Shown here in pieces: positions 6,803-57,012 of a stretch of DNA of 64,000 bases (its first letter is position 1; each line of letters starts with the position of its first letter). Below the pieces are notes generated by a model. It worked only from the letters and a program-made list of their open reading frames with translations, made no database searches and was not told where the DNA came from. Made by a program: the position numbers and the translations under genes. This DNA is from a phage, in sequence record PV467749.1. One strand, written 5' to 3'.

Positions 6803-6892
6803 AATGTTTTACTCCAAACTATTGGCGGGAGAACTATTCCCCCGCTCTATGTAAAACATTATACATTACTGGTTAGTACTGTCAAATAGTTT

Positions 6893-53368: not shown

Positions 53369-54142
53369 TTAAATTTTCTCAAGGAACATGTTTTCTGCCA
53401 TTGACTCCCAATCATATGGAAATTTATTATACAGACCAGCGATCAGTACTGGCATACGCAGAGAAGGTGAACGCAGCTTTTCTTCGTTGTTCAGCATCCA
53501 GTTTAAGATAGCTTTACAACCATTTTTATTAACCCCATTGTTCTCAAGAATATTAGTCTTGTTCATGATGTTCTCAATGTGAATCATAACTTCTTCGTTA
53601 GTGAACAGTTGAAGATCAACAAAGATACTACGAGTAATCAGTGCATCAATGTGTGGTGCTAAACTGCTTTTACCTTTAGCAATCTGTGACAGGTTTTTGT
53701 TCGTCAGGAAGATTACCTTCCCACGGAATTCAAACTGCTTAGGAATACCCTGCTGTTCCAGGTACTTCCCAGAAGTTGCATAAGATACAACCCGCTTCTC
53801 TGAAGTATCCAGTACTGCTTTGAGCAAGTCAATGTTGGTTTCATCGCTGAAGATATCAACGTCATCAAGTAACAGTACTGAAGCGGCATGACGTGAACGA
53901 TACAGTGCTTCGTACAAACCCATAGTGGTTACTTTACCGCTGATCTTTTTGTAGTCGATTTCAAAGTTATCATCAGCTTTCTGTAAACGCTGGTCAACGT
54001 TGTAAGTTTTACCAACACCACCTTTACCAGATACAATCAGGGAATTGATTGAATTAGCTTGGGTATCAAGTAAACATTCCAAAGCTGCCATCATGCTGTT
54101 GAAGTTCTTTTCGATTTGGATTGCTTTCTCTGTACGGGTCAT
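53369..54142 (-). CDS. P-loop NTPase
   Basis: Walker A SGKGGVGKT (KGGxxGK[ST] form) and Walker B-like VLLLDDVD; promoter with -35 inside upstream terminator hairpin. Confidence 0.55.
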   Translation of the reverse strand: MTRTEKAIQIEKNFNSMMAALECLLDTQANSINSLIVSGKGGVGKTYNVDQRLQKADDNFEIDYKKISGKVTTMGLYEALYRSRHAASVLLLDDVDIFSDETNIDLLKAVLDTSEKRVVSYATSGKYLEQQGIPKQFEFRGKVIFLTNKNLSQIAKGKSSLAPHIDALITRSIFVDLQLFTNEEVMIHIENIMNKTNILENNGVNKNGCKAILNWMLNNEEKLRSPSLRMPVLIAGLYNKFPYDWESMAENMFLEKI

Positions 54143-54180
54143 GTATTCATCCTCTCGTCTTGATGAAATAATTATAGCAA

Positions 54181-54210
54181 AAAGGGCTGACCGAAGTCAA
54201 CCCTTTTTTC
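54181..54210 (-). terminator. Terminator-promoter module between HNH and NTPase genes
   Basis: Minus: GGGTTGACT-TCGG-TCAGCCC, T-run, then TATAAT 18 nt after the TTGACT inside the stem. Confidence 0.6.
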
Positions 54211-54610
54211 TTTCAATCAAACATAGTCTACCAGAATGTACCATGCGATGGTGATTAGAACAAAGAATCATACACTTTCGAATTTCATCTTTGATAGCAT
54301 CTCGACTTTTACTGAACATAGAACTTGGTGTATGTTCTTTGGTATTAGGGTCAAGATGGTGAAAGTCTAAACATTCTGGATACTTCATCATACAAACACT
54401 ACAACCATAAAATGATTTAACTCTGGTCATGAAATCTTTATTTTTTCTTTTGATTTCTTCAAGTTTTTTGACATCAGTTTTTTTATTTCTGGTTTTCTTA
54501 CTGGTAATATTACTACAACCTTTGCATGTATTTCTATGTTTCCCAGTATCACTTCTTATACCAAATTCACTAATGTCTTTTTCAATATTACACGTGATAC
54601 ACTTCTTCAT
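54197..54610 (-). CDS. HNH endonuclease
   Basis: N-terminal Cys pairs (CITC, CKGC); C-terminal CLDFHHLDP...ILCSNHHRMVH; stop codon lies inside the terminator stem. Confidence 0.7.
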   Translation of the reverse strand: MKKCITCNIEKDISEFGIRSDTGKHRNTCKGCSNITSKKTRNKKTDVKKLEEIKRKNKDFMTRVKSFYGCSVCMMKYPECLDFHHLDPNTKEHTPSSMFSKSRDAIKDEIRKCMILCSNHHRMVHSGRLCLIERKKG

Positions 54611-54912
54611 TGTTTAATCCATTTATTCAACAATGCACCCAACTTCACAATCTCATACCCATCCAGATAGCCATAGGAACACTCAGGTGTTTCATAAGTT
54701 GAACCATCATGGATACCTTGGCATTGGCTTTTGGAACGTTCAAGCAATCGTTGCAGTACTGATACGTCATCAAGAACGTAATACAAGTTAGCATATGGGT
54801 CCGTCACAATACAGTACTTAAACATACCAAATGTATCAATCGATTTTTCAACCTTAGCAAATTGTTTCTTTTCTTTATTATACAGTGCGTACATATTAAT
54901 CTCCACAATCAA
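54607..54912 (-). CDS. Hypothetical protein
   Basis: Track ORF 101 aa; overlaps 3' end of upstream kinase-like gene by 17 nt. Confidence 0.45.
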   Translation of the reverse strand: MIVEINMYALYNKEKKQFAKVEKSIDTFGMFKYCIVTDPYANLYYVLDDVSVLQRLLERSKSQCQGIHDGSTYETPECSYGYLDGYEIVKLGALLNKWIKQ

Positions 54913-55267
54913 GTTTAACTAACTTACCACCCAGATACCCAAAGTTTTCTGGCTTCGCATCTGAATAGAAGAAGTCAGTACTCAACTCTGAATCCAATGC
55001 TAAAGCACACAACTCCACCCAAAATAAACCCCTATGTTGTACTGGCTTACAACGTTTCTGTACAGTTACTAGTCCAGTACATGATGACCACAACGTAGGG
55101 CAGATACCACTATCACTACGCTTGGAGTACTGCATCCAAGAACGTTCATTGAGGTTAGCTATCATCCCTGTTAAGAATAGCTTCCAACTTTTAAAGGTTG
55201 GAATCTTGATAGCATATTCCCCAATGAGTATGACAGTTCGGGTTGCACCTTTCAAATCTATATTCAT
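54896..55267 (-). CDS. Small protein-kinase-like protein (motif-level)
   Basis: AIK lysine motif, SDAKPENFG catalytic-loop-like segment, terminal KLDCGD (DFG-like); ends right after the DFG-like motif. Confidence 0.4.
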   Translation of the reverse strand: MNIDLKGATRTVILIGEYAIKIPTFKSWKLFLTGMIANLNERSWMQYSKRSDSGICPTLWSSCTGLVTVQKRCKPVQHRGLFWVELCALALDSELSTDFFYSDAKPENFGYLGGKLVKLDCGD

Positions 55268-56299: not shown

Positions 56300-56374
56300 G
56301 ACAATTCCTCGATTGTGGGATGAGAAGTTCATCCCCTTGATAAACATTATACAGTACTGAATGAGTTTGTCAAC

Positions 56375-56755
56375 TCAAAATAAATTCATTTCATGTGCGT
56401 ATTGTGGTTCAAGATGCGATAAGTTTTTGAAGCTTTCTTTCAACTCAGCATCATCTACATACACCGTGCCTGGTACATTCCCCATAGTGAAACCTACCCA
56501 CACAGTCATGTCACCAGTCCCTAAGCGTGGCATTGATAGCGAACCATCAGGTGAAACATCAAACGCTACACTGAAGTCATCAGTAACAACGTCAGAACCA
56601 TTTTCGAGAATAATACATCCACTATCTTTAAGCTTCTGAATGTGGATAGCAGCCTCTACAGCACGTTTGAAGTTATAGTAAGACTCTTTATCCTCAAACA
56701 TTGATTGTTTAATCAGACGCTTGTTTAGCTCGGTTACTTTGTGCATTTGACGCAT
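56375..56755 (-). CDS. Hypothetical protein
   Basis: Track ORF 126 aa. Confidence 0.5.
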   Translation of the reverse strand: MRQMHKVTELNKRLIKQSMFEDKESYYNFKRAVEAAIHIQKLKDSGCIILENGSDVVTDDFSVAFDVSPDGSLSMPRLGTGDMTVWVGFTMGNVPGTVYVDDAELKESFKNLSHLEPQYAHEMNLF

Positions 56756-57012
56756 TACTTATCCATCTCCCACAGTTGTAGAATTTCATAAGAGCCTGGT
56801 GGTGCTGGATTCCTGATCTCAGGGAATTGAGTACTTTTAGGATTTCCACCAGCATTAAATTCGTCAAGTAATGATTCCAGTTCGCGACGATCCTGAACAA
56901 CATAAACACAATCACCTGAACCTTCTTCGAGAATCATTTCACTTCCTGCACAATCCCATACTGTTGAGATACATAGAATCTCTTTTGTATTTTTATTACG
57001 CAATGCAAACAT
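56755..57012 (-). CDS. Hypothetical protein
   Basis: Track ORF 85 aa. Confidence 0.5.
   Translation of the reverse strand: MFALRNKNTKEILCISTVWDCAGSEMILEEGSGDCVYVVQDRRELESLLDEFNAGGNPKSTQFPEIRNPAPPGSYEILQLWEMDK

Follow-up and report, generated by a model that had tools for sequence, protein, structure and literature searches.

A stretch of phage DNA of 64,000 nucleotides (sequence record PV467749.1; this whole stretch is called the window) carries an open reading frame (ORF), ORF A at 54896-55267, whose product resembles a protein kinase that stops at the DFG-like motif. ORF A is a complete, stand-alone gene of a large, uncharacterized and mostly phage-borne family whose native C-terminus lies at the D-x-G motif. 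The encoded protein, MNIDLKGATRTVILIGEYAIKIPTF...FFYSDAKPENFGYLGGKLVKLDCGD, followed directly by TAA, contains A19-I-K21, S102-D-A-K-P-E-N-F-G110 and the C-terminal K118-L-D-C-G-D123. All of the motifs (AIK, SDAKPENFG and KLDCGD before the stop) that an earlier note on this DNA had pointed out are present in the translation of 123 amino acids. The source of the window is an Escherichia jumbo phage of the genus Asteriusvirus (121Q / PBECO4 / G17 group). A region of 3.1 kb around ORF A matches phage EC.P1 at 96% and also matches many relatives of 350-385 kb. All genes discussed are located on the minus strand, and their coordinates are collected in Table 1.

The extent of the family was determined by an exhaustive profile search against 1.8 billion cluster representatives (clusters at 50% identity). 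This search revealed 1210 clusters at E ≤ 1e-3 and 636 clusters at E ≤ 1e-10. The 15 closest clusters, with 44-97% identity and 118-127 amino acids, end without exception with KLD-x-G plus one residue, and homologues down to approximately 30% identity have 110-135 amino acids. Among the best 150 of the 1210 clusters the median length is 123 amino acids, and about 130 of these 150 end between one residue before and two residues after the end of the profile, which itself lies one residue past D-x-G. The C-terminal extensions of the few longer relatives are unrelated and gave no Pfam match; domain fusions were therefore discarded as functional hints. A 1073-amino-acid protein (P0042) which scored E 3e-25 to the family profile was rejected as a repeat artefact, since it consists of about 16 tandem copies of a 67-amino-acid unit. 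ORF A matches phrog_4301 (PHROGs v4, annotated as "unknown function") with an E value of 1.3e-41, residues 2-122 being aligned to profile positions 40-167 of 225. Since it spans only this part of the profile, ORF A is the short form of that family. No description of the ORF A family was found in the literature on minimal kinases and phage, on phrog_4301 and on phage kinase-like families. A few records call relatives of ORF A "serine/threonine kinase", so the kinase likeness has occasionally been noticed by annotators.

Residue counts were taken from an alignment of 160 sequences, and diversity was assessed in a set of 118 members with 27-66% identity to ORF A. In these 118 diverse members the invariant columns are exactly G7, R10, K21, E41 and D120; in the larger alignment D120 is present in 156 sequences and the remaining four have gaps. 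The motifs of ORF A are not chance matches, as they fall on columns that are invariant, or nearly so, throughout a large family. Two main types of catalytic loop were observed, namely D-x-K-P-E-N (101/160) and E-x-K-x-D/N-S (42/160). The distance from K21 to D103 is 82 residues and that from D103 to D120 is 17 residues. Both spacings are close to those of canonical kinases, for which K72, D166 and D184 of PKA are the reference positions. The chain of ORF A stops one residue past D-x-G and contains no activation segment, no APE motif and no helices αF-αI (subdomains VIII-XI).

The AlphaFold2 model of ORF A, calculated from a 15-sequence alignment, reached a mean predicted local distance difference test score (pLDDT) of 90.5 and a predicted template modeling score (pTM) of 0.80. 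It consists of strands 2-4, 10-15 and 18-23, helix 28-43, strands 58-61 and 68-71, helix 79-92, a short helix 97-101 and strands 109-112 and 115-118. In this predicted structure the order of elements is that of a protein kinase from β1 to DFG, i.e. subdomains I-VII and nothing else, and the phosphate-loop equivalent is placed between strand 1 (residues 2-4) and strand 2 (residues 10-15). The top PDB matches obtained with Foldseek include the kinases Legionella Lpg2603 and TTK, at modest E values near 1e-3. ORF A thus shows the features of the protein kinase-like fold: an N-lobe sheet and αC with a conserved Lys-Glu pair, a catalytic loop with the Mg Asp about 17 residues further on, and a structural similarity to solved kinases that was scored as significant. 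The elements of the canonical domain (activation segment with APE, αF and the GHI helices) are absent.

A direct sequence link to known kinases was also considered and had to be rejected. Pfam Pkinase gave no match for ORF A at E ≤ 1, and the gathering score of PF00069 was not reached; NCBIfam and PADLOC gave no match either, and none of the 118 family members matched a kinase Pfam model. Profile searches of PDB sequences returned TTK only, with sub-threshold E values of 0.5-1.3. In this alignment (vdakpenfGylngklvkiDyg) the catalytic loop is located opposite HSDLKPANF of TTK. Neither OspG nor NleH was found at E ≤ 10 when PDB sequences were searched with ORF A-family profiles. A link to the T7 kinase was rejected as well, because phmmer, blastp and hhalign (E 0.22) gave no significant result and the PHROGs differ. 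The T7 kinase is also not among the top 50 BFVD structural neighbours of ORF A.

NleH and OspG are functional kinases with a minimal fold without subdomains VIII-XI (PMC12756638), and ORF A falls within the minimal-kinase definition given for them. OspG, NleH1 and NleH2 (PDB 4q5h, 4lrj) have 160-196 amino acids compared to 123 in ORF A; therefore, their extra residues must be located in flanking segments. These proteins are type III effectors secreted into eukaryotic cells, whereas ORF A is encoded by a phage and ends one residue past D-x-G, and no relationship at the sequence level was detected. HopBF1, Bud32, RIO and the archaeal Ark1/ArkI all have at least 173 amino acids, keep structure past DFG, and likewise showed no detectable sequence relationship to ORF A. 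Eukaryotic-type Ser/Thr kinases (PF00069; TTK/MPS1, PknB) possess the activation segment, APE and αF-αI that ORF A lacks.

The T7 kinase (gp0.7, T7K) disarms several defence systems (PMC13645617). Its kinase-only construct, which comprises residues 1-242 and has DPV at 213-215 as the equivalent of DFG, is active and phosphorylates broadly (PMC13645617). No more than 27 residues follow the DFG-equivalent in this active construct, which is reminiscent of the early end of ORF A. Jumbophage G17, which is closely related to the phage of the window, is reported to encode distant T7K homologues (PMC13645617). In other respects the two proteins differ. T7K belongs to phrog_2828/15752/18305 and ORF A to phrog_4301 alone. 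The T7K motifs are DPV and D-x-H-x-x-N, compared to DYG (DCG in the window) and D-x-K-P-E-N in the ORF A family. Unlike ORF A, T7K is extended at the N-terminus and possesses a shut-off domain at the C-terminus.

Conserved residues and the analogy to these minimal kinases suggest that ORF A is probably a stand-alone minimal ATP-dependent phosphotransferase. Within this reading, protein substrates with a role in host takeover or counter-defence would account for perhaps half of the likelihood. The protein keeps the nucleotide-binding, catalytic half of a Ser/Thr-type kinase, namely the phosphate loop, the β3 Lys21, the αC Glu41, β4-β5, a single αE-like helix, the catalytic loop, β7-β8 and the Mg-binding Asp120. 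Mg-ATP would be bound by K21, E41, N108 and D120, with R10 contacting the phosphates, and the γ-phosphate would be transferred via D103 and K105 to substrates entering an active site that is very open. Such an open site would follow from the missing activation segment and substrate-binding lobe, and for the same reason the enzyme is probably of low specificity or obtains its specificity from a partner. Its role may lie in the takeover of the host or in counter-defence, and its expression may be early and driven by a host-type promoter, as for the T7 kinase. An activity of ORF A is plausible because NleH/OspG (PMC12756638) and the T7 kinase-only construct (PMC13645617) provide precedents.

Several points weigh against a phosphotransferase. 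Catalysis is a prediction for every member of the family, and sequence methods give no significant link from ORF A to any kinase model. In the catalytic loop of about one quarter of the members, Glu/Ser replaces Asp/Asn. In the copy of the window, codon 121 (54905-54907) is TGT (Cys), compared to TAT (Tyr) in all six Asteriusvirus orthologues examined; Tyr is found at this position in 142 of 160 family members and Cys solely in the window. Residue 121 is the counterpart of the DFG phenylalanine. The replacement of this nearly universal Tyr could be a real variant, which may make the protein weaker, or an error of sequencing. In some isolates the family copy is split or truncated (P0006; CMSTMSU, in two pieces; BFVD fragments of 84 and 38 amino acids); therefore, the gene is dispensable in culture. 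No conserved neighbour or partner gene was found across nine genomic contexts, and guilt by association was abandoned, as the heterogeneous contexts with no shared neighbour gave no clue to a substrate. Finally, a consensus match is what suggests early expression.

Three further explanations have to be weighed. ORF A might be a half-kinase which is active only if completed in trans, either by homodimerization or by a host or phage protein supplying the C-lobe surface. Minimal kinases that depend on partners from the host are known, namely HopBF1 and OspG, the latter being activated by E2~ubiquitin, and αF and the remaining C-lobe are indeed missing from ORF A. We consider a strict dependence on such completion unlikely, since no neighbour gene is conserved across the nine contexts, the downstream ORF B is excluded as the completing partner (see below) and the monomer model is confident by itself. 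Completion in trans is, however, compatible with a phosphotransferase and not exclusive of it.

Alternatively, the protein could be a non-catalytic kinase-fold protein, i.e. a nucleotide sponge, a scaffold or a dominant-negative decoy of kinase-based host defences. The lack of an activation segment, αF and a substrate-binding lobe would agree with this, as would the Glu/Ser substitutions in the catalytic loop of one subfamily and the location of one homologue near a Tad2-like gene, only a few genes away. Sequestration of nucleotides by small proteins is a known way in which phages counter host defences. This explanation appears rather unlikely, however, because the phosphotransfer residues D/E103, K105 and N/S108 are kept in most members and D120, K21 and E41 are invariant, and pseudokinases typically lose at least one of such residues.

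A third explanation, which we regard as quite improbable, is a small-molecule or nucleic-acid kinase acting on a nucleotide, a signalling molecule, an RNA 2'-OH or a cell-envelope sugar instead of a protein. It would account for the missing peptide-binding platform, and one homologue is located within a nucleotide-metabolism cluster. Nevertheless, the D-x-K-P-E-N catalytic loop is a signature of Ser/Thr protein kinases, TTK provided the only sub-threshold sequence matches, and no metabolic genes are conserved in the neighbourhood.

The early end of ORF A had also raised the question of whether the gene continues into ORF B, which starts one nucleotide downstream in the +1 frame. The letters at the junction are ...GAT TGT GGA GAT TAA T ATG TAC..., i.e. 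the stop codon of ORF A, one base and the ATG of ORF B. Phages 121Q, PBECO4, JNE01 and A4 all have exactly this junction, GGAGATTAATATG. In the GenBank records of EC.P1, 121Q and JNE01 the layout is 372 nucleotides plus 270-288 nucleotides with a gap of one nucleotide. The PBECO4 record annotates the counterpart of ORF B 11 nucleotides inside ORF A, although the underlying sequence keeps the TAA-T-ATG junction. We assign the start of ORF B to the ATG at 54894, as the annotations of EC.P1, 121Q and JNE01, the N-termini of the homologues and the GGAG at 54904-54901 agree. The overlap of 17 nucleotides mentioned in the earlier note arises only from a mechanical TTG start at 54912.

ORF B matches phrog_8563 across its full length with an E value of 1e-21. 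Its homologues form four close clusters of 89-95 amino acids, all of the Asteriusvirus type and none fused, and no fused ORF A-ORF B homologue was found among the homologues of either family. In seven unrelated phage contexts ORF B was not found beside distant ORF A homologues. Phage EJP2 contains a 127-amino-acid ORF A orthologue (66% identity) which is followed by TGA, one nucleotide and an unrelated gene of 62 amino acids instead of ORF B. In phage A4 ORF A is intact, and ORF B is cut to ten codons ahead of the denV promoter. Pairwise dN/dS (nonsynonymous to synonymous substitution ratio) calculated in the respective reading frame, was 0.05-0.27 for ORF A and 0.16-0.25 for ORF B. Consequently, purifying selection acts on each of the two genes in the frame assigned to it.

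A kinase gene split by a frameshift or an indel, or a recoding event that fuses ORF A to ORF B and so restores a C-lobe, is hardly credible, although ORF A halts right after the DFG-like motif: the stop position is kept in hundreds of divergent homologues, the junction holds no slippery heptamer and no frame that continues the family, and ORF B is a separate, genus-restricted family that was replaced in EJP2 and deleted in A4 while ORF A stayed intact. The same comparative data (replacement in EJP2, loss in A4, absence beside distant homologues) led us to reject ORF B as a partner completing ORF A in trans. ORF B has a Shine-Dalgarno sequence and an ATG of its own and is unrelated to its neighbour ORF A, and neither a frameshift nor recoding is involved. 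The split gene and the recoding site proposed in the earlier note are refuted by these data; both ORFs are individually conserved, each has its own ribosome binding site and no fusion was seen, which is the outcome that the note had named as speaking against its proposal. Its third option, a truncated pseudokinase next to an unrelated gene, describes the architecture correctly, but we do not favour the term pseudokinase, since purifying selection has preserved all of the catalytic residues.

Table 1. Coordinates and properties of ORF A, its predicted functional sites and further features in the window.
Feature	Position	Strand	Properties
ORF A	54896-55267	minus	complete gene; minimal protein-kinase-like protein of 123 amino acids, Hanks subdomains I-VII; stop TAA 54898-54896
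Phosphate-loop equivalent G7-A-T9-R10-T-V12	55232-55249	minus	family consensus G-x-T/S-R-x-V
K21 (AIK), equivalent of the β3 ATP-binding lysine	55205-55207	minus	invariant; in model strand 18-23
E41, equivalent of the αC glutamate pairing with the β3 lysine	55145-55147	minus	160/160 sequences; in model helix 28-43
Catalytic loop D103-A-K105-P-E-N108	54944-54961	minus	D/E103 in 154/160, K105 in 136/160, N/S108 in 154/160
DFG-equivalent D120-C121-G122	54902-54910	minus	Cys where the family has Tyr; D120 invariant
ORF B	54607-54894	minus	separate gene, 95 amino acids, phrog_8563; start ATG 54894; stop TGA overlaps ATG of HNH gene
GGAG Shine-Dalgarno sequence of ORF B	54901-54904	minus	within the last codons of ORF A, six bases upstream of ATG; junction conserved in five Asteriusvirus genomes
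HNH endonuclease gene	54197-54610	minus	phrog_2255, E 9e-32; ATG overlaps TGA of ORF B (ATGA)
Perfect sigma-70 consensus promoter TTGACA-16-TATAAT with TG	56346-56373	minus	upstream of co-oriented run; putative function
9355 gene	9355-9939	minus	distant paralogue, 194 amino acids from ATG 9939; phrog_4301; N-terminal helical extension, tail of about 22 amino acids past DYG

The short form was detected by tblastn in 113 records of cultured phages. Among its carriers are jumbo phages (Asteriusvirus, Erwinia Y3-like phages, Klebsiella Miami, Aeromonas PS1, Ralstonia RP12), T-even phages, an rV5-sized phage, a FelixO1-sized Salmonella phage, a 50-kb coliphage and Pseudomonas siphophages such as PaMx11 and NP1. 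In a Salmonella lambdoid prophage the homologue is located between an Rz-type lysis gene and the terminase gene Nu1. Further homologues were found after a lysozyme gene or before a terminase gene, within a structural module and in a ribonucleotide-reductase cluster. The T-even phage Bas45 "PaulHMueller" of the BASEL collection, which infects E. coli K-12, encodes a member of 126 amino acids (bas45_0262, L019 2501-2881) between ipI and a tRNA cluster, where it is annotated as "hypothetical". The BASEL kinase search, as described in PMC13645617, yielded only T7K homologues and P1 Doc, and bas45_0262 is not mentioned in that description. On a metagenomic phage contig (L008, 2159-2524) a gene resembling Tad2, an anti-Thoeris sponge, is located about 1.5 kb upstream of a homologue in a run of small genes. 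This neighbour is a weak hint of a counter-defence island.

The ORF A family is an extreme, uncharacterized and widespread variant of the minimal-kinase idea with a predicted function. A more far-reaching proposal, possible yet doubtful, is that it represents the smallest self-sufficient protein-kinase unit known (about 120 residues, subdomains I-VII), in which the invariant Arg of the phosphate loop compensates for the missing C-lobe, and that it serves as a widespread phage weapon which phosphorylates host or defence proteins promiscuously. Such a weapon would span jumbo, T-even, rV5-like, FelixO1-like and lambdoid phages and Pseudomonas siphophages and, if true, would extend the counter-defence principle of the T7 kinase to lineages missed by kinase surveys. 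If active, the family would set the lower size limit of the protein-kinase fold, and everything past DFG would be dispensable for catalysis. Phage kinases such as T7K and JSS1_004 are now emerging as enzymes with a broad role in counter-defence, and an active family would add to them a large class that lacks annotation; models for it are absent from Pfam, NCBIfam and PADLOC. Since a member is encoded by BASEL phage Bas45, which grows on E. coli K-12, the question can be tested directly. In the annotation of genomes, a kinase-like ORF that ends at DFG should not be "repaired" as a frameshift.

A motif scan of the window identified ORF A and the 9355 gene as the only kinase-like genes. The mechanical ORF of the latter (9355-9996) starts at TTG and encodes 213 amino acids. 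Its homologues have 191-202 amino acids; therefore, translation probably starts at ATG 9939. The 9355 protein matches phrog_4301 with an E value of 1.6e-41 and Pfam Pkinase weakly (E 0.004, 16.9 bits compared to a cut-off of 31.7). Its AlphaFold2 model, with an overall pLDDT of 59, is confident for the N-lobe only and thus contributes little; the protein has two extra N-terminal helices. The alignment of both families by hhalign was colinear over G-x-S/T-R-x-V, IK, the αC Glu, the catalytic Asp and DYG (E 0.0013-0.0023). As the hhalign probability was just 12.6-18%, the common PHROG is the stronger evidence for paralogy. A direct BLASTP comparison of both proteins was not significant, and the 9355 protein was missed by a narrow hidden Markov model of the close homologues of ORF A; the paralogy is therefore rightly called distant. 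The relationship suggested in the earlier note is therefore supported at the level of the family, by the shared phrog_4301 and the colinear alignment.

ORF A is the fourth gene in a co-oriented run behind the promoter at 56346-56373, which suggests, as far as the promoter sequence can tell, early transcription by the host RNA polymerase. On the minus strand of the window 13 perfect TTGACA-N16-18-TATAAT sites were found compared to 0.08 expected, and all such sites are on this strand. They start at positions 6858, 8384, 8878, 11299, 11730, 11999, 12339, 13978, 14838, 15152, 22125, 25181 and 56346. Most of them share an extended ...CAGTACTGTATAAT motif, and 10 of the 13 fall within 6.8-15.2 kb, around the 9355 paralogue. 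Judged by their motifs, the 13 sites look like a family of strong host-type early promoters.

The HNH gene downstream of ORF B is present in the window and in EC.P1 and absent at this site in 121Q, PBECO4, JNE01 and A4. The C-terminus of ORF B reads GALLNKWIKQ where the HNH gene is present (window, EC.P1) and GIIE in 121Q, PBECO4 and JNE01, as if a mobile HNH gene had replaced the last codons of ORF B. A jackhmmer search of ORF B against the ORFs of the window gave no significant paralogue. By eye, an 85-amino-acid ORF at 56755-57012 (MFALRNKNTKE...SYEILQL) resembles ORF B (MYALYNKEKKQ...GYEIVKL) at both ends. The gene denV (endonuclease V) is located at this site in 121Q, A4, PBECO4 and EC.P1 and is absent from the whole window. 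The promoter-like leader of denV in A4 (TTGACT...TATAAT...GAGGATGAATACATGAC) here, at 54143-54200, precedes a gene for an AAA-ATPase-like protein of 257 amino acids (53369-54142) that is common only to EC.P1, UE-S1 and SP27.

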